A stretch of DNA of 61,470 nt, filler included. It is 7 parts of 7 records of this genome, joined end to end, with 100 filler letters (N's around TTAATTAATTAA, not from the genome) between each part and the next. Parts side by side here need not be neighbours in the genome. Positions count along the whole stretch, not along the records: positions 29,787 to 40,894 come from SRR31156797_41196; 6 more parts are not named here. One strand, 5' to 3'. A model generated the notes under the pieces. That model did not search any database, was not told the origin of the DNA, and saw only the letters and a list, made by a program, of their open reading frames with translations. A program made the translations under genes and the position numbers. Of the stretch, positions 6,443 to 53,566 are shown in pieces (position 1 is the first letter of the stretch; each line of letters starts with the position of its first letter).

Positions 6443-6542
6443 NNNNNNNNNNNNNNNNNNNNNNNNNNNNNNNNNNNNNNNNNNNNTTAATTAATTAANN
6501 NNNNNNNNNNNNNNNNNNNNNNNNNNNNNNNNNNNNNNNNNN
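6443..6542. other. Artificial contig spacer
   Basis: 100-nt N run containing TTAATTAATTAA (stops in all frames). Confidence 0.99.
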
Positions 6543-12071: not shown

Positions 12072-12782
12072 TTAAGACATAATCTCTTCAACAGTGATAT
12101 AATCACCTACTCTACCAGTCATCTGCTCAACGTCAGTATTTACTGGAAGTGTTTTTTTACCAGGAGTCCATCCTGCTGGGCATACTTCACCAGTTTTTTC
12201 TGCATGTTGCCACGCTCTTACTTGTCTTAAGAACTCATGTACATTTCTTCCTACCATTGGTGCTTGTACCTCTTGAGCTACTACTGTACCTTCTGGGTTG
12301 ATTAAGAATCTTCCTCGTAGAGCAATCCCCTCTTCTTCGATCATTACACCAAAAGCTCTTGAAACTGTTCCAGTTGGATCAGCTCCAATTGTAAGTTTTA
12401 ATCCTTCTAATAAAGGTTCAGTCTCAACAAATCTTTTGTGAGAGAATTTTGTATCGGTAGATACAGCTAAGATCTCAACACCAAGCTCTTGAAATTCATC
12501 ATATTTTGCATTCATTGCCGCGATCTCTGTTGGGCAAACAAAAGTAAAATCTGCTGGATAAAAACAAACTACAGACCATTTCCCTTTATAGTCATCACTT
12601 GATACGCTCTCATAGTGACCTGTTTTTGCGTTATACGCATCCATTTTAAACTCTGGCGCTTTTCTTAAAACTAAACTTGAACTCATATTATTTTCTTCCT
12701 TTTTTATTGTATTTGTATTTTCTTCATTGGAAACCGCAGTTTCAACTTCTTCGATCGGTTTTGAACCTGTATCGCAAGCCAT
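12072..12782 (-). CDS. 2-Cys peroxiredoxin (AhpC/PrxU-like) with N-terminal extension
   Basis: FYPADFTFVCPTE, GEVCPAGW; MACDTG leader; alternative start at MSSS. Confidence 0.9.
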   Translation of the reverse strand: MACDTGSKPIEEVETAVSNEENTNTIKKEENNMSSSLVLRKAPEFKMDAYNAKTGHYESVSSDDYKGKWSVVCFYPADFTFVCPTEIAAMNAKYDEFQELGVEILAVSTDTKFSHKRFVETEPLLEGLKLTIGADPTGTVSRAFGVMIEEEGIALRGRFLINPEGTVVAQEVQAPMVGRNVHEFLRQVRAWQHAEKTGEVCPAGWTPGKKTLPVNTDVEQMTGRVGDYITVEEIMS

Positions 12783-13574: not shown

Positions 13575-13674
13575 NNNNNNNNNNNNNNNNNNNNNNNNNN
13601 NNNNNNNNNNNNNNNNNNTTAATTAATTAANNNNNNNNNNNNNNNNNNNNNNNNNNNNNNNNNNNNNNNNNNNN
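13575..13674. other. Artificial contig spacer
   Basis: N run with TTAATTAATTAA. Confidence 0.99.
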
Positions 13675-23200: not shown

Positions 23201-23373
23201 CGGAACTGTGGAAATCACACTGAATGCAATTGCTGAATCATTGTGTGATGATGTTTCAGATAAAATGGTGGTTACTATTGAACGGAAGCCTGTCGCAGAA
23301 GCAGGTATCGACCAGTCCGTTTGCGAAACGGAAGAAGTCCAGTTAAACGGAAACGGAGATTATTATTCAGATT
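14259..23373 (+). CDS. Giant secreted Cys-rich Ig/PKD-like tandem repeat protein (3' truncated)
   Basis: Signal peptide; 31 complete ~88-aa repeats counted by the W-x-T-x-G-D-G-x-F motif (AGxDxxIC...YxPGxxDI..GxVxLCLTA...C). Confidence 0.85.
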
Positions 23374-23473
23374 NNNNNNNNNNNNNNNNNNNNNNNNNNN
23401 NNNNNNNNNNNNNNNNNTTAATTAATTAANNNNNNNNNNNNNNNNNNNNNNNNNNNNNNNNNNNNNNNNNNNN
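23374..23473. other. Artificial contig spacer
   Basis: N run with TTAATTAATTAA. Confidence 0.99.
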
Positions 23474-29686: not shown

Positions 29687-29786
29687 NNNNNNNNNNNNNN
29701 NNNNNNNNNNNNNNNNNNNNNNNNNNNNNNTTAATTAATTAANNNNNNNNNNNNNNNNNNNNNNNNNNNNNNNNNNNNNNNNNNNN
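29687..29786. other. Artificial contig spacer
   Basis: N run with TTAATTAATTAA. Confidence 0.99.
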
Positions 29787-32700
29787 CGGGAGCCATTCCG
29801 TTTCCGGTATCCGGGGTTGTCGGGTCGTCGTATTGTCTTGGAAGACCAGCAAGATCCTTCGTAATCAGGACGGAGATTGCAGAGTTATCACCGGCATCGA
29901 TGCAGGGTGAGCCTGGAAGGACGACGAATGAGCCTCCCAGCGGGTTGGCGAAGAGTGGATCGTCATCGATGTTGGTTTCACCGCAGTCACCACTGTCGCA
30001 CGGGAAGTTGGACCAGGTGATGTCGAAGAAAGCGTCGGCTCCCCAGCTGTCCCAGGCATCTCCAAAGAAGCCGGCGGTGTTGCTTCGAAAAACGGTATTG
30101 GCAACGGCCAGGGATGCATGCAGGTTTTCGATTCCACCACCAAAGTAGCCTGCTTCGTTTCCGTAGAACGTGCAGTTGGTGATGCGGTTCTCAAGATCAG
30201 ACACGCCGTAGTTGTATACTCCCCCACCGTCTTCTTCGGCCGTGTTGCGATCGAAGATGCAGTTGTTGATTTCGATGGTGTCGAGTTGTAACCAGGTGTT
30301 GTATCCGTAGATCGCTCCGCCTGATCCGGTCGTGGTATTGTTCCTAAACATACATGCCGTGATTTCCGGGCTGCTGCTGTAGGAGTAGATGGCCCCGCCG
30401 CCCCAGCTCCAGAGCCCACTGGCTTCATTGCTGTCGAAGGTGCATCGTTCGATGAGCGGAGATGCATCGGTGGTGCAGTAGATCGCGCCGGCTGCGTCTT
30501 CGGCAGTGTTGGAATCGAAGAGGCAGTTTGTAATCGTCGGGCTTGATCCAAGGCAAAGGATAGCACCACCATAGGCAAAGCCGTACGAATCTGCCGGGGC
30601 GTAACCACCTGTGATCGTGAATCCGGAGAGCACGGAGCTTGTTGTTTCATCGCTGATGAACTCGAACGCGCGGTGCGGTTGCCCGGGTGATGCCTGGCAA
30701 TCGATGGTCGTGTATCGCGGGCCACTGAGGCTCTGGACGGCAATCGGTTTCCCGTTGAACGTCAGATTTCGATTTCCCGGGCCCGCGTAGCGGCCGTTGC
30801 CACAGAGGACCACATCGCCCGGTCCGGCGGCATCGATTGCAGCCTGGATGGTCGGGTAGTCGCCTGAGCCGTCCGCTGCTACGTGAATGACGCCGTTGAT
30901 GGTCCACTCGATCGTGATGTCGCGCGGATTGTTCGACGCGGCAGGGTCGGAGATCGTGAGGACAGCAAGATGACGACCAACCACCAGCTGGCTTGAGTCT
31001 GCGGCCAGTTGAATGAAAACCGCTTCGCCATCTGATGCACCTGACGCTGGCGTGAGTTCGAGCCAATCGGGATCGCCTTGCGAATAGGTTTCCGTGATGT
31101 CAAACTCCAGCGTGCCTTCGCCCGTGTTGCGGAGTTCGAAGCCGACAACAACGGGCCCCTGTCCCTTGAGCGATGTAAGACGGATGTAGTCGGCTGACAG
31201 TCCAATGGACGAGGCTGCCGGAACGGATTCGTAAAGTCCCATGTCCACCGAGGCACCAGCGATACGCGGGCAGCCCTGTGCATCCGTTGCGGGAATTCCT
31301 GCCAGCGCGTTTGTTCCTGCATCGATGCATGGAGAGCCGTGCATCAGTCGATAGTCGGCGCCATCAAAGGCGAACATCGGGTCGGCATCGATATTGCCCT
31401 GGCCTTCCCAGCTACCCTGGATATTGGAGAATGTGACCAGAGGTGCCTGGTTTGCATTTGTCCTGTAAATCTGCGGACCAGCGATGGCCGCCGTGTTCGA
31501 CCGGAAGATCGAGTTTGTGGCGGTGGACCACGAGGCGCTTCCCGTGAAGAGGCCACCACCGGATCTACCCGATGAATTTCCGGAGAATACGCAGTTGGTC
31601 AGAACGAACTCGTTGCGGTTGCTTAGACCTCCGCCATATTTCTGTGCGAGATTTCCGGCAAACAGCGTATTGACGGCAAAGAAAATCGAGCTTGCATCGA
31701 CCAAGGCGCCCCCGCCGTTGGCGTAGCTCGTATTGCGTTCGATGCGGCAGGTGTCAAAAAATGGCAGCGAACTGTAGGCATGGACGCCGCTTCCGATATT
31801 GTCTTCGATGCGGCAATGCTTGAAGATCGGTGAAGACTGGTAGAGATACACTCCCCCACCGGTTCCATTTGGCGGCGCGATGTAGCCTGTCAGCGGTGCC
31901 GTGTTTCCGCGGATGAAGCAGTTCGCGATCATCGGGCTGGACGCATCGCAGTAGATGCCTGCTCCACCTTCTGCCGTAGAGTAACCGCCTGTGATCGTGA
32001 AACCTTCCAGGACAGAGTCCCGTGTTTCTCCGTTGTGGAAATAGAATCCGCGATGGTTTTCCGATTCATTGCCTGCGCACTCGAGGATGCAGTGATCGGG
32101 ACCACTGACACTACGCAGAGTGATCGGCTTGCCGAGGAAGTCGATGTCGCGGTTTCCGTCGCCGAAATAGATTCCGTCATGGCAGAGAATCAGGTCGTAG
32201 TCCCCTGCCGCGTCGATGGCTGCCTGGATCGTGGGATAGTCGCCAAATCCATCGGCGCGAACATGGATGGGATCGCTACCCAGTAGCAGCTGAACAGTGA
32301 CCTCTATCGTCTCTTGCAGAGCTGCAGCATTTTCGAACGTCAAGACCGCGGTATGGTTGCCCGGGGTGAGTCCATCGGGAAGAACCTCGAATTCGATTTC
32401 TTCGATGCTGACACCTGATTCACCTGACGACGGGTGCACCGAAAGCCATGACGGGTTCTGGGTGATCGACCACTGCAACGTGCCTGAGCCTGCGTTTCGA
32501 ATGTTGATGGTTTGAGGCTGTGGAGCTTCGCCACCGTATGCGATGAACCGCAGCTGCTGGGTATCGATCGCGATTGCAGGGGATGCGAGTGGATTATGCT
32601 CAAGGGCGCCCCGGTCGGGATTCGATCCGATGACGCGAGGCGTTCCTTCCAGGTCCTGAGCCGGGAGAGTCGCATCGGGATTCGCGGAATTGATGCAGGG

Positions 32701-35700
32701 CGACCCTGCGAGCAGATGCGCATCGATCCCATCGAACGCAAGAAGTGGATCTGTATCCATGTTCCCCTCTCCGGTCCACCCTCCTTCAATCGAGGTATGC
32801 TCTATCGTTATTTGTTCGTCACCATCAACACTTGCAATGGCCAGACCAGTCCCTCCCGTGTTCTTCCAGATGATACTGTTGCGGAACACGGGATAGCCTG
32901 ACGTATCGTTGAAGAGTACCGTTGCGTACCGGTCTGCCGAATTTCCGGTGAACGTGCAATTCAGGAAATCGGGCTGGGAAGCATTGACGGAAACGGCTCC
33001 ACCGCGATCGGCATGATTCCCAACAAAGAGGCAGCCTGTCACTGTCGGATTGGATTCAATCCGGGCTGCCAGTCCGCCCCCCGTTCCGGTCGCGGTGTTG
33101 AAGCGGAAGACACAGTTGATGATCCCTGGCGAAGAAAGCGTTCCACAAGAAACGGCAGCACCGACAGACGAGGTATTGTATTCAAAGACGCAATCCGAGA
33201 TCGTTGGAGAGGAGTTCCTGCAACTGATGGCACCACCTTCGTAATGGGCTCCGTTTCGGATTGTGAATCCACGGAGGATCGATTTGCCTGTTTCCCCGTA
33301 GAGGAACGTAAATCCCCTGTGGTATTGTTCAAACGAGCCCTGTGCATCGATGATGGTTGAAGCGGCGCCATTGAGGCTCTGAACGGTGATGGCTTTTCCG
33401 ATGAAGAGAATATCCCTGTTGCCATCCCCGGTGTATGTACCGTCGCCAACGAGTACCGTGTCGCCTGTTCCGGCAAAATTGATGGCGGACTGGATCGCAG
33501 GCAGTGCCTGTTCCCATGATGTACCATCGCCGTTGGTTGATGCATCCTCTGCGACGAACCAGGTAACCTGGCATTCGTCCGGGCGACCGTTGGTGTCGGC
33601 ATCCAGACTGGTGCCGGAGAGGATGTCGAGGAAGTCCGGCACGCCGTTGGTGTTGCAGTCGAACTCGCATTCATCGGGGATCCGGTTGTAGTTCGTATCG
33701 GCGCTGGTTCCTGCAGCAATGTCATCGGAATCGAAGACGCCATTGTTGTTGCAATCGGTCTCGCATTCATCCGGAAGGCCGTTGCTGTTGATGTCCGGGC
33801 TTGTGCCGGCTTCGAGGTCGCAATCATCCGGAATACCGTTTGTATTGCAGTCGAATTCGCATTCGTCGGGAATGCCGTTGCTGTTGCAGTCGAGGCTTGC
33901 CCCGCTGGCGATATCACATTCATCCGGAATCCCATTGGCGTTGCAGCCGGGTTCGCATTCGTCCGGGATGCCGTTGGTGTTGCAGTCGAGGCTGTTTCCG
34001 CTGGCGATGTCGCATTCGTCCGGGATGCCATTTTCATTACAGCCGGGTTCACACTCGTCGGGGACTAGGTTCGTGTTGCAGTCCACGCTTGTACCCAGAT
34101 GGATATCCCATGGATCCGGCGACTCGTTTTCATTGCAGTCGGGTTCGCATTCGTCGGGTACCGCGTTGCCGTTCACGTCGGCACTGAGTCCCATGAAGAG
34201 GTCGTCGTTATCGGGAAGGCCGTTGGTGTTGCAATCCTGCAGGTATTCGAATGCTCCGATGTCTATCACCAGGCCCGTACCTGGTTTCATCGGATTATCC
34301 ACAAGCCGAGGGAAACCAGCCAGATCAATGGAGACGGGCTCGTGCAGAATGCGATCTCCGTCAACATCGGCCAGATCCAGAAGGGCCGCATGGTTCGAGC
34401 CGGCATCCGATGCGGGCGATTCCGGGAGCAGGTGGTAATCCCCATTCAACACATCGACGAACTGAGGCTGCTTCTGAATATTCCCTTCCCCCATGTAGCC
34501 GCCTTCAATGAGACTGTAAGAGATATTCAACGTGCTGCCGAACTGATTGAACAGCTGCGGGTACTGTGACGCATAATTGCCCGAGATGATGGTATTGACG
34601 ATATCGAGGTATCCACCCGTCGAGTTAAAGATACAGCCCCCCTGGCTGGTCGCCTCATTCGTTGCCAGGGTGCAATTCAGGAATTTCGAGACGGAATACT
34701 CATCATTGTAGAGAGCGCCGCCATACTCTGCTTCATTTTGATCCATGAGCGTGTTTACAAAGAGAGGGTTGGAGTAGCCGCTCGTGAAGATGGCACCCCC
34801 TTTTTCCGCATCATTTTCCACAAAGCGGCAGTTGCTGATACGAGGCGAACCATGCCAGGTATACATTGCCCCGCCCTGCTCTGCCGAGCAGTATTGCATT
34901 ACACAGTTCCGGATCAGGGGATGTGCCCACTCGCAATAGATTCCTCCTCCGGATTCGAAAAAGAATTCATCCTGGTCGGAGTTTTCCAGAGGAGCAAAAC
35001 CATTCCGGATGGTAAAACCATCCAGAACCGAATCGATTGTTTCGTTGGTCCGGAACACGAATCCACGATGCGGGCTCATCTGCCCGCCACGGCAATCGAT
35101 AATGCAATTTTCAGGTCCATTGATGCTCCGGAGCGTGATTCGCTTGCCGTCGAACGTGATGTCGCGGTTTCCGCTTCCGGAATAGACGCCATCGGCGACT
35201 TCAATCGTATCCCAATCCTCGGCGGCATTAATGGCGGCCTGGATCGTCGGGTACTGTCCTGTCCCATCGGCCCTGACCGTGTATGTCGATCCGACCGAGA
35301 GCAAGACCGGCAGCTCATAGATTTCCTGCGATGATTCGTCATTGACAAACGTGATGACTGCCTGGTAACTCCCTGCAGACAGGTTTGAGATATCCGCATC
35401 CAGGGAAATGATTTCATCCAGCACACCTGCGATCCCTGTTTCCGGCTGAAGCTGCAACCAGGGCGCATCGGATGTTGCGCTCCACTGGACGGTTTGTGTA
35501 CCTCGATTTTTCAACCGAACTTCGAGTCCATCGAGAATCTCACCTCCATACGCAACCAGATGCGCTTCTGCTGGATACGTTGACAGAATTACCCCTGAAT
35601 CATGAAGAAACTCGTAGACGCCCATGTCGACAATTCCGCCCGAGACTCGAGGATTTCCATCCAGGTCTTCATCGGGGAGACCGCCGTGAACCAGGTGCGT

Positions 35701-36864
35701 TCCGGCTTCTATACATGGGGAACCCGGCAAGAGATGATAATCATCCTGCCAGAAGGTAATCATTGGATCGTCACTGATATTGCCTTCCCCTTGCCAGCCC
35801 CCGGGTAAAGCGGAATACAGAACCGTCGTGTCCGAGTTCTCCGAATAGTAAATCAGATCGTTCGTATCGTTTGGAAAAGGGGCAATGATGCAGTTTGTTA
35901 ACCTGGCATTGGAATATTCCACACTGCGTGTCACCGAACCAGGCTTCACGCTTTCATTTCCGACAAACGTGCAGTTGGCGATTATGGAAGAAGCATTCTG
36001 GTGAGAAAGTGCTCCTCCATCGAGAGACGTGTTCCCGATGAAAAGACAGTTGGTGAACCAGAGTCGGCATAAAAAGCCATTTACCGCACCACCGCTGAAA
36101 TATCCGTAGTTCTTTTTGAAGATGCAGTTGCTGAATTCCGGTAAACAATTCGAAGCCGAATGAACAGCACCTCCCGATTCTCCAATATTGTTTTCAAACA
36201 CGCTGTCAGAAACCTTCGGCGATGATTCGATCAGGTATAACGCTCCGCCCGATACTCCGATGTTGTTGCTGAACAGGCAGTTTTTAACCACTGGCGAAGA
36301 CAGAATGCATGCAAGCGAGCCCCACTCTCCCGTATTGTTGCGAAACACGCAATTATCTACGGTTGGATTCGACTCACTGCAAAAAATACCTGCGCCAGCG
36401 AAACTGAAGTTATTCTCGATGATACAATTGGTAATCGTCAGATCTGAAGAATAACAAGCAATCGCCGAATTGCTCGTAGAGTCAACATTGGTAATGGTAA
36501 ACCCGGAAAGGACCGCGGCGCGCGATTCCCCGACAAAGACGAATCCTCCATGGGGGTCTTCCTGATTGCCCTGGCAATCGATGATGGAATACTCCGGGCC
36601 ATTTTCGCTCAAGAGTTTGATGGTTTTTCCATGGAACTGAATATCCCTGTTGCCCGGTCCCGTATAGGTACCGTCACCAACAAAGACCGTATCCCCTGAA
36701 ACGGAGGCATCGATTCCTGTCTGGATGGTGTCAAATGCCGTCGCCCAGGACGTACCATCCCCGCCTGGTTCAGCATCTACCGACACATACCACGTGCTTC
36801 CAAACCCTGTGGCTGCACAACCGAGGAGCACCAGGGCTGCAAAACAAACTATGCGATTATCCAT
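29787..36864 (-). CDS. Giant secreted protein: five right-handed beta-helix modules, three BACON-like domains, Cys/Asp DCNxNG repeats (3' truncated)
   Basis: Repeated TIQAAI..GxYxGxGNRDI..F.GK.I starts, GGAI/F..N beta-helix rungs, L.PGSPCIDAG/D.G.YE ends, W..PWL...P.SG linkers. Confidence 0.85.
33570..34240 (-). repeat. Intragenic DCNxNGIPDEC repeats (seven ~32-aa units)
   Basis: 14 D/G-C-N-x-N-G-x-P-D-like half-units in the translation; coordinates approximate. Confidence 0.85.
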
Positions 36865-36974
36865 CGATATGAGTCTCCATACTCCCAGCGACGAGCGGTG
36901 CTACTGACTTCAAGCACCATAATTATAGCCACTGGATAAGCGTATTCCAAAAATGGGGGGATGTTTGGGGTTCT

Positions 36975-37691
36975 ATGGATTCAAACGGCTGTTCCTATAC
37001 AATAATGCGCATGAGTTCCGAGCCTACTTTCATCTGTTTTTCGGGTCTGGCGGCTGACCACAGGTTGTACGAACGCCAAATACAGCTTCCGTGGGAAATG
37101 CGGTGCATCGACTTTGTCGATCCGGAAGAGGATGAGCCGCTTCGGGATTATGCATTGCGTTTGATCGGCATGTCGGAGCTTCCGGAGCGGACGATTCTGT
37201 GCGGGATTTCGTTTGGCGGGATGTTAGCAGCCGAGCTGGCTCAGCATCTGAATCCGGAGGCGGTGGTGATGATCGCCAGCACTCCGCAGCCCAAAGGAGT
37301 TTCCTCACTGCTGCGCATGTTTAATGCGATTTCCGGGATCATTCCGGACATGGCTGTTCGCCAGGCGGGGAATTACTCGAAGACTTTTTTGAACCTGTTT
37401 CATAATCTCTCGGATGCGGAACACGAGATGTTCGCGGACATGTTCAGGCAGACTCCGGTCACGCGGGTCAAGCGTCTCGGGAAGATGATCTTCAACTGGG
37501 ATGGCGTGGAGAGCTTTCCGTGTCCGAAGCTGCATGTGCATGGGGAGCGAGACCCGGTGATTCCGGCCCGGAAGATCCGGCAGAAGCCTGATGTGATCAT
37601 TCCCGGAGCACGTCACCTGGTGAACTGGACTCATGCGGACGAGGTGAACGCGGCGATTGAGAAATTCGTCCGAAACCTGCCCTGTAACTAA
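36975..37691 (+). CDS. Alpha/beta hydrolase
   Basis: GISFGG nucleophile, HGERD, GARH triad; real start may be a downstream ATG near 37005-37011. Confidence 0.85.
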   Translation: MDSNGCSYTIMRMSSEPTFICFSGLAADHRLYERQIQLPWEMRCIDFVDPEEDEPLRDYALRLIGMSELPERTILCGISFGGMLAAELAQHLNPEAVVMIASTPQPKGVSSLLRMFNAISGIIPDMAVRQAGNYSKTFLNLFHNLSDAEHEMFADMFRQTPVTRVKRLGKMIFNWDGVESFPCPKLHVHGERDPVIPARKIRQKPDVIIPGARHLVNWTHADEVNAAIEKFVRNLPCN

Positions 37692-37821
37692 TCGCAATTC
37701 ATATGTAAGAACCTGCCAGCCTGCTGCAAATCGTATAGAGATCGTGGTATACTTGTCGCGTCCGGGATCTGGAAACACAGTATAAAACGATGTAGATGGG
37801 CCTTTTTCGAAAGGGGGCAGT

Positions 37822-39363
37822 ATGAGACCTTGTCGGTTGTGGCACGTAACGGTGCTTCTGCTTTGCCTGGCGGGCTATGCCTGGAGCGACCAGGAACCCA
37901 AGCACCTGCTGAAGGGAACGGTTGTAAATGAAGCCGGGGAGCCGGTTGAAGGTGTCCAGGTCGGTGTTGCCCGGGAAGGCGAAGATACAGGCGGATGGGG
38001 GCACATCTCCTACCTGGGACTCGATCAATTCGAGGTGTCCAGTAATCCGGATTACTGGATGGGTATGATGCCTGTCCGAAACACGTACAAAAGTGGACAG
38101 GGAACCACAGATCAGAACGGGCAATTTTTGATCGAACAGCTCAAGGCTGGACCGTACATCCTGCTCGCTGCTCATCCAACCGAAGGTTTGACGACAACCA
38201 AGTTTCAGTATGATCCAGCCGCAACAGATCATCCGACGATCACACTTGAACCGGCAGGGTATATCTACGGGCAGCTGGAAGGTGAACACAACTTTGGATA
38301 TATCAGAGTGTCCTCCAATCAATGTGCTGAGATTAAACCGGATGCAGAGAATCCGTTTTGTCGTTACCCGACGCTGAATCGAATCCACATCTATAAAAGG
38401 ATCGGGAAAAACGGGAAGTACTGCATCGGGCCCCTCCCGACTCCCGGCGAGTACTCGGTTTCGGCTGATTCGTTTATCGTCGATCGAGGTTTCTTTGCCA
38501 CCCTTTTCAATTCATCCGTCTCCCTGAAAAAGGGTGAGACGTTCTGCTGTTCTAAAAAAGACGATGCCTGTATTACAGGTCGTGTGCTGGGGCCGGACGG
38601 AAAACCTCTCCAGCTTGTCAACGTCACCCTGCGGCACCCCGCACTGGACGAAGCGGAAGCAAAACAACCCAAGCGAAACTATTCCTACTTCGGCCCGGGC
38701 CAGAAGCGTCCCACAATTTCGGGGGCAGTTACCAACGAGAAAGGCGAGTACCGCATCCCTGTATATTCAAAAGGGGCAGCGACACTTCATGCACAGCGAT
38801 GGTCAAAACGAACGGGCTTTGGCTGAGGCCCCGGCCCTCAGGATGTTTTTGCCTGGCAGAACATCCAGTTGCCGGTCGGCAACGCGAAACCGCTGGACAT
38901 CAAAATCGACAAGTTCCTGACGCTGGTAAAGGGACAGACAGCACCCGACTTCAAGGGCAAAACGCTTGATGGGAAAGAAATCCGCCTGGCGGACCTGAAG
39001 GGGAAGGTCGTGCTGGTGGACTTCTGGGCGACCTGGTGCGGTCCGTGCATCAAGGAGTTTCCAAACATCAAGAAGGCGTACGACAAGTATGGTGGCGAGA
39101 AGGGCAAGCTGGTGGTCATCGGGATCTGCCTGGATTCGGACAAGGATTCGATCCAGCGGATATTGAAATCCAAGTCGGTGACCTGGCCCCAGATCCCGGG
39201 GAAATCTGCCTCGACTGATCCCATTGCCAAGGCGTATAACGTCGCGGGTGTGCCGGCGACGTTCCTGATCGGTCCGGATGGCAAGCTCCTGGCGACGGAC
39301 CTGAGGGGCAAAGCGTTCGAGAAGGAAATCGGTAAGGCGATCCGCAAGATGCAGGGAAAATAG
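37822..39363 (+). CDS. Secreted carboxypeptidase-regulatory-like beta-sandwich protein fused to TlpA thioredoxin via in-frame TGA (38824-38826); candidate selenoprotein
   Basis: ORFs 37822-38826 and 38869-39363 are in frame, separated only by TGA and 14 sense codons (FG*GPGPQDVFAWQNIQLPVGN); TlpA motif DFWATWCGPC. Confidence 0.65.
38841..38866 (+). promoter_or_regulatory. Candidate SECIS-like hairpin
   Basis: GGAUGUU/AACAUCC stem plus UUGC/GCAG upper stem; loop begins 27 nt after the UGA. Confidence 0.5.
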
Positions 39364-39393
39364 CCCCCTGTGAAACTTCAGGAATTCACACCT

Positions 39394-39430
39394 ACCGCCC
39401 GTGGAACAGGGTTTCTGCACCATGGGCGGT
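39394..39430 (+). terminator. Hairpin after TlpA fusion
   Basis: ACCGCCCGTGG / CCATGGGCGGT inverted repeat. Confidence 0.5.
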
Positions 39431-39646
39431 GTCTTCCTACCTTGCGAAATACTGCATATTGTGGTAGCATTATTCAGTCAAAAGGCACGGCGCGGTTGCC
39501 GTTTTTGACATTTCGGGGTTAGTTTAGATAAACTATTCGATCCTGCGAAAGCGCGGTTACGGACAAGGTCTATCCTGTGCCACACCGGGATCTGAATCGG
39601 GTGAATTGTTGCCCGGTATATAAGATGTAGAAGGATCACAAGCTGT

Positions 39647-40894
39647 ATGTTCCTGAAGCGAATCGACATGAAGGGTTTCAAGAGCTTCGCCGAAAAGGTG
39701 ACGTTCGATTTCGGTCCGGGCGTTACGTGTATCGTCGGGCCTAATGGCTGCGGTAAGAGTAACGTGGTCGATGCCTTCCGGTGGGTGCTGGGCGAGCAGT
39801 CCGCCAAGTCGCTTCGTGGTAAGCAGATGCAGGACATGATCTTCAACGGGTCCGGAGGTCGGAAGGCTGCGGCATTCGCGGAAGTGAATCTTGTCTTCGA
39901 TAACACTGATCGCTCACTCGCGCTGGATACCGACGAGGTTGCTGTCTGCAGACGGCTGTATCGTTCGGGCGAAAGTGAATATTCGCTGTGCGGGCAGACG
40001 TCGCGACTCAAGGATATTCGCGAGCTTTTCCTCGATACGGGTGTGGGTACGGAAGCGTACTCGGTTATCGAGCAGGGCAAGGTGGAGATTCTCCTGCAGG
40101 CGAGTCCGCAGGAACGCCGGATGATCTTTGAAGAGGCCGCGGGAATCAGCAAGTACAAGGTCCGCCGCAAGGAAGCCGAACGCAAGCTGGATCGTACGCA
40201 GCAGAACCTGCTTCGCGTGGAAGATGTGATCGAAGAACTGGGCAAGCGTCTGCGAAGCGTGAAGTACCAGGCCGGCAAAGCCCGCAACTACAAAGAATAC
40301 GAAGAGCGTCTGAAGGAACTCCGAGCGAGCTTCTCCATGGCGGAGTATCACCGTCATACCCAGGCAATCGACAACCAGGTCAAGAAGTGCCAGGAGATCA
40401 GTGACGAAGTGACGGCTCTGCGCACGCGGATCGATGCCAACGAAGCCGAGGCATCCCAGCTCACGACCCGCACGGATGCTTTGACCGAAGAGCTTTCCGG
40501 GGCTGAAAGTGAACTGATTCGCGTCCGGTCGGATATTACCGCGAACCAGGAACGGATTTCTTCGTCCGAGCGTCGCATCGAAGAACAGAAGGCGAATCGG
40601 GATCGGGCACTCGCACAGGTTCGCGATGGCAACGAGCGCGTCGAGCAGATGCAGACGCAGCTGACCACCGCGGAAGAGCAGCACGAACGGCTGACCGGCG
40701 AGATCGAAGAACAGCATCAGAAGGTCGATGAGCTGCATGAGCAGGATCGCAAGCTGGCCCACGAACTCACGCAGGCCAAGGCGATTCTCGAAGATGAGAA
40801 GGCAGGCATTATCGAACTGCTTCGTCGTACGGCTCACCTTCATAACGAAATTGAACAGCTCAACTCGCACCAGGAGAACCTGGTCGGGCAGAAG
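39647..40894 (+). CDS. smc: Chromosome segregation protein SMC (3' truncated)
   Basis: GFKSFA, Walker A GPNGCGKSN, Q-loop YSVIEQG, FEEAAGISKY, long coiled coil. Confidence 0.96.
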
Positions 40895-40994
40895 NNNNNN
40901 NNNNNNNNNNNNNNNNNNNNNNNNNNNNNNNNNNNNNNTTAATTAATTAANNNNNNNNNNNNNNNNNNNNNNNNNNNNNNNNNNNNNNNNNNNN
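40895..40994. other. Artificial contig spacer
   Basis: N run with TTAATTAATTAA. Confidence 0.99.
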
Positions 40995-40995
40995 C

Positions 40996-41478
40996 GTTTT
41001 TCCGGTTGCCTTCATCGTCTTGATCATTCTGGCGGCTGTCGCTTACTTCCTGCTCTACTGGACTCATTTCGGCCGCGGGATCCGTGCGATCGGAAGCAAT
41101 GAACGCGCGGCCCGGCTTGCCGGTGTCCACGTCGATTTCGTCAAGGTGATTGCCTTTGTCATCAGCGGACTGACCTTCGCGATCAGCGGCTTCTTTCTTT
41201 CCGGCCTGCTCTATTCCTCGAGCGGAACGATGGCGACAAATTTTGAGTTGAATGCCATTGCGGCCGTCGTCGTCGGCGGCACTTCGCTTCGCGGCGGTCA
41301 GGCGACGATTGTCGGTACCGTGGGCGGCGCCGTTCTGTTCTCATTGCTTTCGAACGCTCTGAACCTGCTTGGTGTCTCCTCATACTGGCAGTACGTGCTC
41401 ACCGGCGTCGTGCTTGCAACCGCCGTCGCGCTCGGACGATTGCGCCGGTCGGAGCAGGACGTTCGCGGGGCGGACTGA
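40996..41478 (+). CDS. Monosaccharide ABC permease, RbsC family (5' truncated)
   Basis: FGRGIRAIGSNERAARLAG, ELNAIAAVVVGGTSLRGG. Confidence 0.92.
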   Translation, partial: VFPVAFIVLIILAAVAYFLLYWTHFGRGIRAIGSNERAARLAGVHVDFVKVIAFVISGLTFAISGFFLSGLLYSSSGTMATNFELNAIAAVVVGGTSLRGGQATIVGTVGGAVLFSLLSNALNLLGVSSYWQYVLTGVVLATAVALGRLRRSEQDVRGAD

Positions 41479-48653: not shown

Positions 48654-48753
48654 NNNNNNNNNNNNNNNNNNNNNNNNNNNNNNNNNNNNNNNNNNNNTTA
48701 ATTAATTAANNNNNNNNNNNNNNNNNNNNNNNNNNNNNNNNNNNNNNNNNNNN
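48654..48753. other. Artificial contig spacer
   Basis: N run with TTAATTAATTAA. Confidence 0.99.
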
Positions 48754-48858
48754 CTTGTCGACGGGGCACAATTTCCCATTGCCGAAGTCCGTTGCGCGGT
48801 TATATTAAGTTTTTCTAATTAACAAAGGGCCGCAGCGGCAGGTCAAATGGGGGGCAAC

Positions 48859-51756
48859 ATGTCATTGCGGGACCGCCTGTTCGTTTCCGACGATGTCGAG
48901 ACGTCGCCGTCGGTCGGCGACGAAATCAAGCACACGACCTGTTACATGTGTGCCTGCCGGTGCGGCATCCGGGTTTATATGCAGGACGGCAAGGTCCGCT
49001 TCATCCAGGGAAATTCGAACCACCCCGTCAACAAGGGTGTGCTCTGCGCCAAGGGCTCGGCCGGTATCATGCAGCACTATTCGCCGGCGCGCCTGCGCAA
49101 ACCGTTAAAAAGAGTCGGCCCGCGCGGACAGGGCGAATTCGTCGAGATCGAATGGGACGAAGCGCTTGCCACGGCGACCGACTGGCTGTCGAAAATCCGT
49201 AAAAGTGATCCGCGCAAGCTCGCCTTCTTTACCGGCCGCGACCAGAGCCAGGCCCTGACCGGTTGGTGGGCCAGCCAGTACGGCACTCCCAATTATGCCG
49301 CCCATGGCGGTTTTTGTTCGGCCAGCATGGCGGCGGCCGGTCTTTACACCATCGGCGGATCGTTCTGGGAATTCGGCGAACCGGACTGGGACCGGACCAA
49401 ATATTTCATGCTGTTCGGTGTCGCCGAGGATCATGATTCGAATCCGATCAAGGCCGGCATCGCCAAGGTGAAGGAACGCGAAGGCGCCAAGATGGTGTCG
49501 GTCAATCCGATCCGCACCGGCTATTCGGCGGTGGCCGACGAATGGCTGGGAATCCGGCCCGGCACCGACGGCCTGTTCATCATGGCCCTGATCCAGGAAC
49601 TGATCGCCGCCGGCAAGGTCGATTTCGATTTCCTGGTCCGCTACACCAACGCGCCGTGGCTGGTCGTGCAGAACCCGGGCGGGCCGGACGACGGCCTGTT
49701 CGTGCGTAACGACGACGCCCACCCGATGGCCTGGGACAAGAAAAAATGCGCCCCAGTCGATGCCCTGGCGACGAAGATATCGCCGGCTTTGGTTGGCGAA
49801 TTCGAACTGCCGGACGGCCGCAAGGTGGTGCCGGCGTTCCAGCTTCTGGCTGGCCGGGCGTTGGAAAAGCGCTATGCGCCCACCGCCGTCGCCGAAACCA
49901 CCGGCATTCCTGCCGTCACCATCAAACGCATTGCCGCCGAACTGGCCCATGTTGCCTTTGAAGAAGAAATCACAATCAACACCCCGTGGACCGACTGGGC
50001 CGGCCGCCGGCACAAAAAATTCGTCGGGCGTCCCGTCAGCATGCACGCCATGCGTGGCATTTCGGGCCATACCAACGGCTTCCAGACCTGCCGCGCCATT
50101 CATATCCTTCAGATCCTGCTGGGCAGCATCGATTGCCCCGGCGGCTTCCGCTACAAGGCGCCCTATCCGAAACCGGCGCCGCCGCCGTTGAGGCCGTTCG
50201 GCAAGGCCGGTGAAGTCCACCCCGAGACGCCTATGCAAGGCCCGCCGCTGGGTTTCCCCATGGGGCCCGAAGACCTGCTGGTCGAACCGGACGGATCGCC
50301 CCGGCGTATCGACAAGGCCTTTTCCTGGGAACATCCCTTCGGCGTGCACGGCATGATGCACATGGTCATCTCGAATGCCTGGCGCGGCGATCCGTACCCG
50401 ATCGATACGTTGATGATGTTCATGGCCAACATGAGCTGGAATTCGTCCATGAATACGTCCGGCGTCATGGACATGCTGACCGACAAGGATGAAAAGACCG
50501 GCGAATACAAGATCCCGCGCATCATCTATTCGGACGCCTATTTTTCCGAAATGGTCGCTTATGCCGACCTGATCCTGCCCGACACCACCTATCTGGAACG
50601 CCACGACTGCGTCAGCCTGCTCGACCGACCGATCGGCGAAGCCGACGGTGTTGCCGATGCCATCCGCCATCCGGTGGTCGAACCGGACCGCGATGTCCGG
50701 CCTTTCCAAAGCGTGCTGATCGATTTGGGCGCTCGGCTCGGCCTGCCGGACCTCGTCAATGAAGACGGCAGCCCGAAATATCCCGGTGGTTATCCGGACT
50801 ATCTGGTCAACCACGAACGCACGCCGGGCGTCGGCCTGCTGGCCGGGTGGCGCGGCGCCAAGGGCGAAAAGAACGGCAAAGGCGAACCCAATCCGAAACA
50901 GCTGGACGCCTACATCGAAAACGAATGTTTCTGGCACCACGAATTTCCCGAAGAACACCGCTTCTTCAAGATGGCCAACCGCGGCTATCTGGAATGGGCC
51001 GCCAAGTTCGGCCTGATCGGATCGTCCAATCCGGTCATTTTCCAGCTTTACCTGGAACCGCTGCAGAAATTCCGACTGGCCGCCGATGGCCACGGCGATC
51101 TGCAGCCACCGGGCGAGCACCGCGACCGCTTGCGGACCTATTTCGATCCGCTGCCGATCTGGTATGCGCCGTTCGAAGAGGACATGGTCGACACCGACGA
51201 ATTCCCCCTGCATGCGCTGACCCAGCGGCCGATGCAGATGTACCATTCCTGGGGCTCGCAGAATGCTTGGCTGCGCCAGATCCTGGGCCGCAACTACATC
51301 TACATGCATCCCGACACCGCCGCGCGGCACGGCATCGACAACGAAGACTGGATCTGGATCACCAGCCACCTGAACCGGGTTCGTGCCCAGGTGCGCCTGA
51401 TGGACGGCGTCAATCCCGGTGTCATCTGGACCTGGAACGCCATCGGCAAGAAAAAAGGGGCCTGGAACCTGTCGAAAGATGCCGAGGAATCGCGCAAAGG
51501 TTTCCTGCTCAACCACGTGATATCCGAGCTGCTGCCGATCCGCGCCGGCGAGCCGCGCTATTCCAATAGCGATCCGATCACCGGTCAGGCCGCCTGGTTC
51601 GATTTGCGCGTGCGCATCGAAAAAGCGGGCCCCGACGAACAGGGCGAAACCTGGCCGCAATTCGATGCTGCCGCCAAACCGCCGGGCATCGACGATCCGC
51701 CCGACCGGCTGACCTACGGCTGGGATTTCCGAAAAGCGCGGGAGGGCCGGAAATGA
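48859..51756 (+). CDS. soeA: Sulfite:quinone oxidoreductase molybdopterin subunit
   Basis: TTCYMCACRCG, AHGGFCS, HAMRGIS, MYHSWGSQNAWLRQI; no Tat signal; alternative start 48847. Confidence 0.92.
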   Translation: MSLRDRLFVSDDVETSPSVGDEIKHTTCYMCACRCGIRVYMQDGKVRFIQGNSNHPVNKGVLCAKGSAGIMQHYSPARLRKPLKRVGPRGQGEFVEIEWDEALATATDWLSKIRKSDPRKLAFFTGRDQSQALTGWWASQYGTPNYAAHGGFCSASMAAAGLYTIGGSFWEFGEPDWDRTKYFMLFGVAEDHDSNPIKAGIAKVKEREGAKMVSVNPIRTGYSAVADEWLGIRPGTDGLFIMALIQELIAAGKVDFDFLVRYTNAPWLVVQNPGGPDDGLFVRNDDAHPMAWDKKKCAPVDALATKISPALVGEFELPDGRKVVPAFQLLAGRALEKRYAPTAVAETTGIPAVTIKRIAAELAHVAFEEEITINTPWTDWAGRRHKKFVGRPVSMHAMRGISGHTNGFQTCRAIHILQILLGSIDCPGGFRYKAPYPKPAPPPLRPFGKAGEVHPETPMQGPPLGFPMGPEDLLVEPDGSPRRIDKAFSWEHPFGVHGMMHMVISNAWRGDPYPIDTLMMFMANMSWNSSMNTSGVMDMLTDKDEKTGEYKIPRIIYSDAYFSEMVAYADLILPDTTYLERHDCVSLLDRPIGEADGVADAIRHPVVEPDRDVRPFQSVLIDLGARLGLPDLVNEDGSPKYPGGYPDYLVNHERTPGVGLLAGWRGAKGEKNGKGEPNPKQLDAYIENECFWHHEFPEEHRFFKMANRGYLEWAAKFGLIGSSNPVIFQLYLEPLQKFRLAADGHGDLQPPGEHRDRLRTYFDPLPIWYAPFEEDMVDTDEFPLHALTQRPMQMYHSWGSQNAWLRQILGRNYIYMHPDTAARHGIDNEDWIWITSHLNRVRAQVRLMDGVNPGVIWTWNAIGKKKGAWNLSKDAEESRKGFLLNHVISELLPIRAGEPRYSNSDPITGQAAWFDLRVRIEKAGPDEQGETWPQFDAAAKPPGIDDPPDRLTYGWDFRKAREGRK

Positions 51757-52493
51757 CAAGCCTTCCTCCGCCGCCGAAGAAAAAGCTCGGCCTTGTCATC
51801 GATCTCGATACCTGCGTTGGTTGTCACGCCTGCGCCGTCAATTGCAAGGAATGGAATTCGGGCGGTCACATGGCGCCGCTGACCGACCGCGAACCCTACG
51901 GCGAACCGGTCGTCGGCGTCTGGTTCAACCGCATCCACAGCTTCATGGCCGGCGAGGGCGATATCGGACGGACTGTCCATTTCCCGAAATCCTGCCTGCA
52001 TTGCGAAGAAGCGCCCTGCGTCACGGTCTGTCCGACCGGCGCCAGCTTCAAACGCGAAGAGGACGGCATCGTCCTCGTCAACGATCAAAAATGCATCGGT
52101 TGCAGATTGTGCAGCTGGGCCTGCCCCTACGGCGCCCGGGAATACGATTACGACGCCGGCGTCATGAAAAAATGCACGCTTTGCATCGATCGCATCTACA
52201 ACGAGAATCTCGACGAGGTCGACCGGGTGCCGGCTTGCGTTTCCACCTGTCCGGCCAATGCCCGTCATTACGGCGATCTGAACGATCCCAATTCCGATGT
52301 CTCACATCTGGTGCGCGAACGCGGCGGCCAGGACCTGATGCCGGAAATGGGCACGCAGCCGGTCAACAAATATCTGCCGCCACGGCCGCGCAAACGCAAA
52401 GCCGAAGATATCGGTGCGCCCGAACAACTGACGCCGGCCTCGCGGGAAGGGCACCCCTTCCTGCATTGGCTCGACAAGACGTTGTCACGATAG
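51753..52493 (+). CDS. soeB: SoeB iron-sulfur subunit
   Basis: IDLDTCVGCHAC and three further 4Fe-4S motifs; ATGA overlap with soeA. Confidence 0.92.
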   Translation: MTSLPPPPKKKLGLVIDLDTCVGCHACAVNCKEWNSGGHMAPLTDREPYGEPVVGVWFNRIHSFMAGEGDIGRTVHFPKSCLHCEEAPCVTVCPTGASFKREEDGIVLVNDQKCIGCRLCSWACPYGAREYDYDAGVMKKCTLCIDRIYNENLDEVDRVPACVSTCPANARHYGDLNDPNSDVSHLVRERGGQDLMPEMGTQPVNKYLPPRPRKRKAEDIGAPEQLTPASREGHPFLHWLDKTLSR

Positions 52494-52508
52494 GGGAGGG
52501 GAAAAGTC

Positions 52509-53456
52509 ATGCATCCGGCATTTTCGGTCGTTCTTTTCACCACCTCGCATGGTGCCGGTTACGGCATGCTGGCGCTGCTGGGTGTCTTGGGGCCGCTAGG
52601 CTTCGTGCCCATCGATCCCTGGTTCGGGTTGGGCTCCTTCGTGCTGTCGCTGGGCGCGGCGACCCTGGGGCTGATGGCCTCGACCTTCCATCTGGGCCAT
52701 CCGGAACGGGCCTGGCGTGCCTATACGCAATGGCGCTCTTCCTGGCTGTCGCGGGAAGGCGTGCTCGCCACCATCACTTATTTGCCAGCGATCCTGTTCG
52801 GTTTCGGCTGGATCGTTTTGGGCGACGTTTCCGGCATCTGGGGCGCCTTCGGGCTGGCATCTGCGGCGCTGGCCATCGTCACCGTTTTCGCTACCTCGAT
52901 GATTTACCGGTCCCTGGATACCATCCACGCCTGGGCCAACGACTGGGTGCCGCCGATCTATGTCGCCAATGCCATTCTTTCGGGCGCCATCTGGTTCAAC
53001 ATGATGCTGCTGATTTTCGACAAACCCTGGCCCGGCTTTGCTTGGTTCACGTCCGTCGCCATCGCCGTCGGCTGGGGGCTGAAGATCTGCTATTGGCATT
53101 TCATCGATACCACCCGCCATCCCAGCACGCCGGGAACGGCGACTGGGCTGTCGGCCTATGGCACCGTGAAACTGTTCGAAGCTCCGCATACGGGCGAGAA
53201 CTTCCTGCTGAAGGAAATGGGCTACAAGGTCGCCCGCAAGCACGCCCAGAAACTGCGGCTATTCGTACACGCAGCCCTGTTCGGCGTGCCCATCGCGCTA
53301 TGCGCGCTGACCGCATATCTGCCGTCGGTGTGGGGCGCCGCCGTGATGGTTTTCGTCTTTGTGCTCAGCGGCATCGGCATCCTGGTCGAGCGCTGGCTCT
53401 TCCTGGCCGAGGCCAAGCACGTCGTCACGCTTTATTACGGCGCCGAGTCGGCTTGA
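52509..53456 (+). CDS. soeC: SoeC DmsC/NrfD-type membrane anchor
   Basis: MHPAFSV, STFHLGHPERAWRA..QWRSSWLSREG, ERWLFLAEAKHVVTLYYG. Confidence 0.92.
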   Translation: MHPAFSVVLFTTSHGAGYGMLALLGVLGPLGFVPIDPWFGLGSFVLSLGAATLGLMASTFHLGHPERAWRAYTQWRSSWLSREGVLATITYLPAILFGFGWIVLGDVSGIWGAFGLASAALAIVTVFATSMIYRSLDTIHAWANDWVPPIYVANAILSGAIWFNMMLLIFDKPWPGFAWFTSVAIAVGWGLKICYWHFIDTTRHPSTPGTATGLSAYGTVKLFEAPHTGENFLLKEMGYKVARKHAQKLRLFVHAALFGVPIALCALTAYLPSVWGAAVMVFVFVLSGIGILVERWLFLAEAKHVVTLYYGAESA

Positions 53457-53566
53457 TCCCATACGCATGGAAACGAGCTGTTTGGTTATTCTCTGTGCGG
53501 ATGCTATCATGAGTTGATTATTGTGCTGGAAGATATATCGAATTCTCGCCGAATTCAGGAGATGTC

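Follow-up and report, generated by a model that had tools for sequence, protein, structure and literature searches.

Several envelope redox relays are known in which the catalytic Cys or Sec of one domain is regenerated by a periplasmic thioredoxin-fold CxxC domain, either fused to it or acting as its partner. Examples are the Trx-MsrA-MsrB protein PilB and DsbD, whose immunoglobulin-like N-terminal domain works with thioredoxin-fold partners and carries its redox-active residues on a beta-sandwich. Among selenoproteins, the ResA-like family NF041054 is bacterial, has a TlpA/ResA-type thioredoxin-fold domain (cd02966 class), and carries Sec inside the thioredoxin active site (WAxxUGC). The thiol:disulfide interchange, thiol-disulfide isomerase-like, and redoxin-family selenoproteins (UxxC; PF13098, cd02966, and PF08534) are likewise Sec-bearing thioredoxin-fold redox proteins, many of them exported, and their families are defined by Sec/Cys pairs (PMC13188914, Table 1). 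For the families as given in that table, Sec is always at the N-terminal Cys of CxxC. Lastly, Cys-containing fusions of CarboxypepD_reg modules to TlpA occur in Planctomycetota and relatives (P0148, P0152, and the G404 gene in locus L224).

The DNA analysed here (the window) is a stretch of 61,470 nt, and positions 37822-39363 of its plus strand very probably encode, as a single gene, a 513-residue selenoprotein with a UGA decoded as Sec. The protein is predicted to be exported and to comprise an N-terminal signal peptide, three modules of the beta-sandwich type (CarboxypepD_reg/transthyretin-like), and, at its C-terminus, a TlpA/ResA-type domain. Unlike NF041054, this protein and its relatives keep WC[GSAT]PC intact, and their Sec is on a beta-sandwich loop, 71 residues N-terminal to it. 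The match of NF041054 to the window protein covers the TlpA domain only and scores 35.3 bits (50.2 bits for the relative L125) against a cut-off of 300. Similarly, the scores with ResA (NF002854; 92.1 bits vs 170) and TlpA (NF047696; 59.8 bits vs 230) are below the strict cut-offs. By sequence comparison, the window protein is a superfamily relative and not an ortholog. The UxxC selenoproteins of PMC13188914 (Table 1) differ further in that none is given there with CarboxypepD_reg modules or G-U-G-P-G-P. In contrast, the Cys fusions share with the window protein the architecture, the G-[C/U]-G-x-G-P loop, and the 71-residue spacing to WCxxC, but they have Cys for Sec, lack a hairpin after the codon, and have x-[M/L/I] rather than x-P as the CxxC dipeptide.

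This appears to be an undescribed and widespread family of predicted exported redox proteins. The original prediction did not recognise the architecture as described; in agreement, the 2026 inventory of 119 selenoprotein families does not contain the family, as far as its listed entries go, neither does NCBIfam, and no paper joining "carboxypeptidase regulatory-like" with "selenocysteine" was found in the literature. Table S9 of PMC4807772 holds split "thiol-disulfide isomerase-like thioredoxin" candidates that may be related to the beta-sandwich-TlpA family; as it stands, that table gives no motifs for comparison. Recognition of the family would add to the prokaryotic selenoproteome what is predicted to be a widespread envelope protein of Phycisphaerae-type bacteria.

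The reading frame and position 335 in related genes

The original prediction had read two open reading frames as one frame broken only by a TGA, and the frame was verified: the complete read-through CDS (37822-39363) has 513 codons and a TAG stop at 39361-39363, and its sole interruption is the TGA at 38824-38826, which corresponds to residue 335 in the peptide ...RTGFG-U-GPGPQDVFAWQNIQLPVGN.... The read-through protein can be aligned end to end with 10 further read-through orthologs and nine Cys forms. At the DNA level, the same aligned TGA is present in 16/16 verified genes, which come from eight genomes, six metagenome contigs, and the window, are approximately 30-36% identical to the window's copy, and share the motif G-U-G-[P/L/A]-G-P. 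The aligned codon is TGC or TGT in 10 full-length relatives, where the encoded Cys lies within G-C-G-x-G-P, and fusions farther away also have C-G-x-G. Neither Trp, Arg, Gly, nor Ser was seen at position 335 among the 16 orthologs and the 10 full-length relatives. By comparison, the criterion applied to the Sargasso Sea data was at least two Cys homologs aligned with the UGA (PMC1088965), and here there are 10 close full-length Cys forms in addition to the distant C-G-x-G fusions. The in-frame UGA is therefore both conserved and followed by an intact frame, as in a selenoprotein gene. Along with the covarying hairpin described below, the conserved TGA and the Sec/Cys pairing support the selenoprotein reading first proposed for this locus, and the apparent stop codon is most likely read as selenocysteine.

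The family extends beyond the DNA-verified genes. An exhaustive HMMER search returned 145 matches, among which 32 representatives of 50%-identity clusters stop at ...R[WYH]xxRxxxG, in alignment with query residues 331-334; four of these 32 equal, or differ only slightly from, N-terminal halves already verified from DNA. With the N-terminal 334 residues as query, a word-based search for homologs had given zero matches where the exhaustive search succeeded. A DNA pattern scan for members matched 108 stretches; of the 80 examined, six belonged to the family, and the other 74 had matched by chance in GC-rich DNA. Additionally, the "1 TGA" first scored for G404 proved to be its terminal stop, and the gene is a Cys form. 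One degenerate relative without a CxxC (G629, locus L253) was excluded from all counts.

Protein architecture and the TlpA active site

The N-terminus of the predicted protein (residues 1-22; 37822-37887, plus strand, as for all features below) is a probable signal peptide. AlphaFold2 places a hydrophobic helix at residues 5-17, followed by a low-confidence stretch (18-25), and the N-termini of the orthologs are likewise hydrophobic. On the basis of this helix and of precedent in the TlpA family, the protein is predicted to be exported. Three beta-sandwich modules would follow. The first (residues ~29-141; 37906-38244) is delimited by AlphaFold2 strands, has weak Pfam matches of the CarbopepD_reg_2, NOMO, and Dioxygenase_C type, and contains the invariant residues G32, V34, G100, and F102. 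The second (residues ~146-242; 38257-38547) is likewise modelled as strands, at low confidence between residues 166 and 186, and has a conserved G-P-L-P at 203-206. The N-terminal region had no meaningful match among PDB sequences (best E 0.026).

The third module (residues ~250-350; 38569-38871) belongs to CarboxypepD_reg (PF13620; 57-60 bits against a gathering cut-off of 32.3, residues 251-326), and the orthologs score 60-87 bits with the same profile. The match in the window protein spans only positions 2-56 of the 82 in the profile and is therefore cut off at the TGA. In the AlphaFold2 model, the Sec loop lies between strands 318-327 and 340-350, and the block pLDDT is ~92 for 340-350. 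The model thus bears out the earlier proposal that residues encoded after the TGA complete the last sandwich, with strand 340-350 as the predicted closing strand. The loop between these strands carries the motif R326-x-x-x-R330-x-x-x-G334-U335-G-P-G-P339 (38797-38838). Across an alignment of 20 sequences, R326, G334, and position 335 are invariant, and R330, G336, and G338 are nearly so.

Residues 370-494 (38929-39303) form a TlpA/ResA-type thioredoxin-fold domain. It scores above the Pfam gathering cut-offs for AhpC-TSA (PF00578; 77.2 bits vs 26) and Redoxin (PF08534; 65.8 vs 26.6), and Thioredoxin_8, at 55 bits, is also above cut-off. Foldseek relates it to 4grf, ResA (1su9), and TlpA (1jfu), with E from 1e-8 to 1e-12 and TM of 0.64-0.89 on the target. 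The Pfam domain, CxxC, and fold together identify it as a thiol-disulfide oxidoreductase of the TlpA/ResA type. Its active site, C406-G-P-C409 (39037-39048), is preserved within an intact WCGPC, and W405, C406, and C409 are invariant in the 20-sequence alignment. As originally noted, the Sec is therefore outside the CxxC. It occupies instead a Gly/Pro loop in a module commonly taken to be structural, outside any classical redox motif.

Sec335 would be at the tip of the hairpin loop that links the two final strands of sandwich 3. From there, its selenol may attack an oxidised substrate in the cell envelope, for example a disulfide or a sulfenic acid. The CxPC of the fused TlpA domain would resolve the selenenylsulfide or selenenic acid so formed, and the CxPC would in turn be re-reduced by a membrane electron donor, as in other TlpA-family proteins. 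Two observations suggest such coupling between Sec335 and the TlpA site. The CxxC dipeptide varies with the residue at position 335, being x-P in 15/15 Sec forms and x-[M/L/I] in 9/10 Cys forms, and position 335 is at a fixed distance of 71 residues from the CxxC in 23/25 forms with a TlpA domain. It is inferred from this co-variation, which is a hint at the level of sequence, that the TlpA domain may recycle the selenol. PilB and DsbD serve as a working analogy only, and no sequence or profile relation between them and the window protein was found. In comparison to DsbD, the sandwich has a single Sec/Cys and not a Cys pair, and, unlike PilB, the window protein has no Msr domain in a Pfam search.

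It is also possible, although not probable, that this is a genuine selenoprotein in which Sec335 is not the partner of the TlpA site and instead binds a metal or chalcogen (e.g. copper) or acts on a substrate independently. The sandwich has only one Sec/Cys, with two invariant Arg nearby and without a second conserved Cys. Furthermore, the titles of PDB 4txo and 4txv name the copper chaperone ScoI and CoxB as targets of Bradyrhizobium TlpA, and copper binding by Sec335 would be in line with a role of TlpA in Cu-centre assembly. The U/C-dipeptide co-variation and the fixed 71-residue spacing argue against this alternative. With its Sec next to an intact thioredoxin-fold site whose dipeptide changes with the residue at position 335, the family would offer a natural system for testing how a selenol and a dithiol work together within a single chain outside the cytoplasm.

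Decoding of the UGA

In the proposed mechanism, the UGA at 38824-38826 would be decoded as Sec by SelB and tRNA-Sec, directed by the RNA structure immediately downstream. That structure would comprise a first hairpin (38841-38866; GGAUGUUUUUGCCUGGCAGAACAUCC), possibly together with a second, GGUC-loop hairpin (38868-38883). The first hairpin, a SECIS candidate from folding and ortholog comparison, has 11 pairs, one bulge, and the loop CUG at 38853-38855, 26 nt past the A of the UGA. Considered in the window alone, it is not significant relative to shuffles (p 0.14; z -1.4 to -1.6 for dinucleotide shuffles), and its significance derives instead from the ortholog comparison. A hairpin follows the UGA in 16/16 genes. 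When compared to synonymous-codon shuffles, all 16 Sec genes fold better (median z -2.04; p<0.05 in 11/16), whereas 3/3 Cys forms do not (z +0.23, +0.39, and +0.89). In the stem alignment of the 16 genes, 83% of the cells are paired, as opposed to 27-56% when the alignment is slid. Five of nine stem pairs have changed on both sides, and the covariation score exceeds that of all 500 shuffles. Covariation of the hairpin and its absence from the Cys forms are thus in keeping with the role originally assigned to it.

The published bSECIS model requires a loop of 3-9 nt, a stem of 4-16 bp, a G in the first two loop positions, a spacing of 16-37 nt, and an MFE <= -7.5 (PMC13188914, Fig. 2A legend). 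These constraints were applied with a strict in-house scan for contiguous stems, which is distinct from bSECISearch. The window's hairpin passes all four constraints with a 9-bp stem, an 8-nt loop (UGCCUGGC), a spacing of 23 nt, and -8.5 kcal/mol. The scan was passed by 12/16 Sec forms, the window included, and by 0/3 Cys forms; the first hairpin of the other 4/16 orthologs fails this strict check. An Rfam search of the whole window at gathering thresholds gave no match, and a permissive scan of 38790-38930 gave only noise.

The SECIS loop of E. coli fdhF may be GGUC. The second hairpin found by folding here (GUUGCC-GGUC-GGCAAC; 38868-38883) has a 6-bp stem and a GGUC tetraloop, which is at +51 from the U of the UGA. 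A GGUC-loop hairpin is present at this position in 11/16 genes, with identical CCG-GUC-GG codons. At 47 nt past the UGA, it is beyond the 16-37 nt of the bSECIS rule. The original prediction that the hairpin at 38841-38866 is the 3' SECIS therefore stands as to its presence and distance, but the SECIS may comprise more than this hairpin. A more specific proposal can be made only tentatively, and it is on balance doubtful: that the Sec on the beta-sandwich loop works, within one molecule, as redox partner of a TlpA CxPC that is intact and co-evolves with it, and that it is inserted through a non-canonical two-hairpin SECIS, in which the first hairpin would act as a spacer that pushes a SelB-binding GGUC loop to +51, past the 16-37 nt range. 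SECIS-based gene finders rely on the bacterial SECIS model, whose limits on loop distance could be probed with the two conserved hairpins.

The Sec machinery of relatives is consistent with decoding as Sec. SelA was found in 8/8 genomes with the TGA form, compared to 80/201 in the class sample (the genome G284, flagged as unpublished, enters the class-sample denominators only). In one TGA-form genome (G001), selA, selB, selD, and tRNA-Sec are all present, and selD itself has a Sec-TGA. The check for Sec machinery suggested at the outset was thus positive in relatives. The machinery is not sharply discriminating, because Cys-form genomes may also have SelA (present in G404 and G029, absent from G009). 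No sel genes or tRNA-Sec were found within the 61,470-nt window, and its AspRS has no close relative among the matches listed for 401 class genomes (44-50% identity).

These last observations, namely the AspRS at <=50% identity and the lack of sel genes within the window, leave some room for a different decoding, in which a near-cognate tRNA for Trp, Cys, or Arg reads through the UGA, or in which TGA is reassigned (codes 4/25), without Sec. More generally, 3' hairpins are known to stimulate read-through of stop codons, and this would be compatible with the structure observed here. Such decoding is nevertheless quite improbable. TGA is the ordinary stop of 6/22 supported genes in the window, and therefore there is no code change; genome-wide reassignment was rejected on this ground. 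Moreover, relatives always have Cys, chemically the analogue of Sec, at the aligned position, SelA accompanies every TGA-form genome, and the hairpin agrees with the SECIS model as published. What looked like an in-frame TGA in an "SMC" gene, at 41476, is the normal stop of a different gene past a run of N.

One gene or two

Gene callers split the frame everywhere, and databases accordingly hold a "hypothetical" sandwich protein and a short TlpA. If the split were correct, a secreted sandwich protein with a true TGA stop would be followed by an independent TlpA gene starting at the TTG at 38869. UGA termination surely competes with Sec insertion, such that a 334-residue product may also arise. 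Yet two independent genes are very unlikely, slightly more so than decoding without Sec. A conserved start is lacking: 8/16 DNA-verified genes have no in-frame ATG, GTG, or TTG within 32 codons 3' of the TGA. The annotated-style TTG of the window has no GGAG, GAGG, or AGGA in the 12 nt 5' of it, which upholds the earlier observation that this start has no SD. Additionally, the in-frame G-P-G-P after the TGA is conserved, the last sandwich strand is predicted to form there, the Pfam match to the sandwich is cut at the TGA, and the Cys forms are single proteins. Comparison of the genes thus shows the two halves to be a single continuous protein, not independent genes, since half of the verified genes lack an in-frame start within those 32 codons and the Cys forms are continuous. 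At least 32 clusters (50% identity) are truncated at the Sec codon, and recognising the family corrects their annotation.

A nonsense mutation or sequencing error in a broken CarboxypepD_reg-TlpA copy, with a Cys codon TGY changed to TGA, would take a single base (TGC/TGT to TGA), Cys forms do exist, and the window copy is divergent, but this can be practically discounted given the TGA in 16/16 divergent genes, its implied presence in 32 more clusters, the intact downstream frame, motif, and TlpA domain, the conserved hairpin after the TGA, and letters identical to those of a second assembly that may derive from the same source sample. That assembly, from a public run, covers 38300-39151 with 0 differences; since it is possibly of the source sample, it is not independent. 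The window protein itself is on a long branch and has an unusual composition.

Across eight ortholog loci (65 ORFs), no conserved partner gene was found nearby beyond synteny among three close genomes. The Cys fusions appear in their sources as "TlpA family protein disulfide reductase" or "carboxypeptidase regulatory-like domain-containing protein", and more distant examples are P0082, P0090, and P0068. In a quick tree, the Cys forms fall into one group.

Reading frame and domain architecture

The gene occupies a single 513-codon frame at 37822-39363 (+) that ends at TAG and is interrupted solely by TGA 38824-38826, the codon of residue 335. Under translation table 11, ORF calling breaks it in two, with 334 residues in the first ORF and 164 in the second, which would start from TTG 38869. 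Another assembly, of a public run that is possibly the source sample, shows no differences across 38300-39151. A Pfam CarboxypepD_reg match covers residues 251-326 and breaks off precisely at the TGA, having reached profile position 56 of 82, and a TlpA-type AhpC-TSA/Redoxin domain with an intact WCGPC follows at residues 370-494. A reassigned code is excluded, because TGA terminates 6 of the 22 well-supported genes in the window.

In an AlphaFold2 model of the window protein (mean pLDDT 80.7, pTM 0.76), residues 340-350 form the strand after strand 318-327 and complete the third sandwich, with Sec335 in the loop joining the two strands (block pLDDT about 85); the C-terminal domain matches ResA/TlpA structures. 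Half of the DNA-verified genes (8/16) have no in-frame ATG, GTG or TTG within 32 codons 3' of the TGA, and no SD-like sequence was found before the window's TTG 38869. The sandwich and TlpA halves form one protein, not two genes. The original prediction had described one frame broken only by this TGA, an intact WCGPC, a downstream TTG without an SD, and post-TGA residues that would complete the last sandwich; each was recovered here, the last by modelling the fusion.

The gene lies on the piece at 29787-40894, one of seven in the window, which are separated by N-runs in six pairs (each 44 N, 12 bases and 44 N) at 6443-6542, 13575-13674, 23374-23473, 29687-29786, 40895-40994 and 48654-48753. 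Genes are broken at these runs: an SMC gene halts at 40895, and what follows at 40995 is the C-terminus of an unrelated permease.

Conservation of the site and Sec machinery

When the read-through protein was used in a word-based search, TlpA matches swamped the output, but the search did reveal CarboxypepD_reg-TlpA fusions that exist as continuous proteins, several with Cys opposite the TGA in a first alignment. A genome-contig scan recovered a full-length relative (35% identity) from a Phycisphaerae MAG, with TGA at the same site (KRVGFG-TGA-GPGPLEF). Six-frame searching of 401 genomes of that class located the gene in 8 genomes, as 9 genes that include one tandem pair, all 9 with the TGA within G-U-G-[P/L/A]-G-P. 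Scanning metagenome contigs for a DNA pattern contributed 6 further genes; of the loci fetched (80, from 108 matches), 74 were chance matches. Altogether, TGA stands at the site in 16/16 DNA-verified genes, and the frame and TlpA domain are intact downstream wherever the contig continues.

Some loci depart from the common form. The tandem selenoprotein pair of locus L255 (G198:C19, 7246-10620; L101 and L111) has TGA in both genes, one of which encodes G-U-G-L-G-P in place of G-U-G-P-G-P. Locus L110/L261 (G184:C104; motif V-P-G-U-G-A-G-P) has a longer architecture, with >450 residues after Sec and two AhpC-TSA stretches. A degenerate relative, L253 (G629:C13), retains sandwich modules without CxxC (…FWDAHCDES…) or the G-C-G-x-G loop, and may be a paralog that was inactivated or repurposed.

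Searching 1.84 billion cluster representatives exhaustively by HMMER with query residues 1-367 returned 145 matches. Among these are 32 proteins, roughly 140-780 residues long, that have ...R[WYH]xxRxxxG as their own C-terminus, aligned to query residues 331-334; they are gene calls cut at the same codon, and four are identical or near-identical to DNA-verified N-terminal halves. Eight full-length proteins from the same search carry G-C-G-x-G-[P/A/R] at the site and WCxxC 71-76 residues on. P0160 is a ninth, divergent Cys form, and genome G404 supplies a tenth. Position 335 is always U or C in a 20-sequence alignment, in which G334, R326 and the CxxC cysteines are invariant and R330, G336 and G338 near-invariant. 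The original prediction had looked to codon 335 for conserved TGA or exchange with Cys, and both occur; Trp, Arg, Gly or Ser, which it associated with a simple nonsense mutation, is found at the site in no homolog. The Cys forms are one group (one change, SH-aLRT 80) among Sec and shortened forms in a quick maximum-likelihood tree built from the N-terminal region, with midpoint rooting used only to draw it; the window sequence sits on a long branch.

No tRNA, Rfam match or sel gene was found in the window. The window organism has no close relative among the 401 class genomes, because its AspRS is at most 50% identical among the matches listed. Among the relatives, G001 encodes SelA (473 bits), SelB (367 bits), tRNA-Sec (61.6 bits) and a SelD (363 bits) that has a TGA of its own. 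SelA is present in 8/8 genomes with a TGA form versus 80/201 in the class sample; the G184 SelA match is split into two pieces. The window UGA very probably encodes Sec in its own gene, and the same reading would be somewhat firmer for the family as a whole.

RNA structure downstream of the UGA

The predicted hairpin at 38841-38866 folds in the window sequence; by itself it does not differ significantly from dinucleotide shuffles (z about -1.4 to -1.6). Among the Sec-form genes, no gaps are needed to align the 66 nt that follow the UGA, and stem columns 18-26 with 35-43 are paired in 83% of cells versus 27-56% with the partner columns slid. Changes on both sides occur in 5/9 stem pairs, and each of 500 shuffles falls below the covariation score; a register shifted by 1 nt fits better in some members. 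The region +12..+48 is more stable than its own synonymous-codon shuffles in 16/16 genes (median z -2.04; p<0.05 in 11/16; p 0.14 for the window gene alone), and no such excess is seen in three Cys-form genes (z +0.23, +0.39 and +0.89). A strict scan for the bacterial SECIS constraints quoted in a 2026 review (PMC13188914) was passed by 12/16 Sec forms and 0/3 Cys forms. The window hairpin is among those passing (9-bp stem, loop UGCCUGGC, spacing 23 nt, -8.5 kcal/mol).

A second hairpin, 38868-38883 (+), presents a GGUC loop at +51 and occurs in 11/16 genes with identical CCG-GUC-GG codons. Four genes without it carry GGUC on the first hairpin at +30, L110 carries it on both, and a GGUC apical loop is present somewhere in 15/16. 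The +51 loop falls outside the 16-37 nt rule; a two-hairpin SECIS in the Sec-form genes is possible. The selD of G001 (L098, G001:C4) is a Sec-TGA gene (…CAG-U-AGK…) with a canonical hairpin, GCGCAG-GUG-CUGCGC, its loop starting 31 nt after the UGA.

Relation to known selenoproteins and possible function

Table 1 of the 2026 review covers 119 families and subfamilies of selenoproteins from prokaryotes, and in the part considered none of the entries has a CarboxypepD_reg domain or a G-U-G-P-G-P-type motif. The TlpA/redoxin-type entries there all place Sec in the active site (UxxC or UGC), whereas the window family has it on a beta-sandwich loop. The family also differs from 'UGC-containing TlpA' (NCBIfam NF041054, WAxxUGC), as its proteins reach 35-50 bits where the cut-off is 300. 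No NCBIfam model matches the N-terminal half, and no literature joining 'carboxypeptidase regulatory-like' with 'selenocysteine' was found among the papers searched. Nothing similar is mentioned in passages from the deep-Sep, BSepDB and Haft papers. One caveat on novelty is that split 'thiol-disulfide isomerase-like thioredoxin' candidates appear in Table S9 of PMC4807772, which gives no details of their motifs. The architecture, which the first reading had not recognised as described, represents a genuine selenoprotein family, apparently undescribed, of which the window gene is a divergent member. The recoding is classical; the unusual features are Sec on a beta-sandwich loop beside an intact, co-varying thioredoxin-fold site, and the possible two-hairpin SECIS.

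The Sec335 loop carries an invariant R-x3-R-x3-G-U-G-P-G-P. The TlpA active site is C-x-P-C (C-[GSAT]-P-C) in 15/15 Sec forms and C-x-[M/L/I]-C in 9/10 Cys forms (C-G-M-C, C-G-L-C, C-S-L-C, C-A-I-C), the dipeptide switching with the Sec/Cys state; for function, this pattern is suggestive. The site lies 71 residues from WCxxC in 23/25 forms with a TlpA domain, the three more divergent members excepted. Because the change is coupled between both sites of one polypeptide, the two are argued to work together, and the preferred mechanism is therefore one in which the Sec335 selenol would attack an oxidised envelope substrate and would then be regenerated by the fused TlpA dithiol. That Sec335 instead binds a metal or chalcogen is a live alternative. 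Ortholog neighbourhoods (8 loci, 65 ORFs) yielded no partner gene that is conserved.

Elsewhere in the window, 12072-12782 (-), on another piece, encodes a complete 1-Cys peroxiredoxin (AhpC-TSA + 1-cysPrx_C) without an in-frame TGA. ORF 29731-36864 (-; 2377 residues) contains repeated beta-helix-like units with many D-C-N-x-N-G-x-P-D-E-C-E modules, and 14259-23429 (+) is a giant ORF of 3056 residues. A Psr/Dms-type operon at 48847-53456 (+) encodes a molybdopterin oxidoreductase, a 4Fe-4S subunit and a DmsC-like anchor; an overlapping second frame, 51713-53509 (+), is open for ~599 codons across the final two of these genes, an oddity at 47.5% GC.
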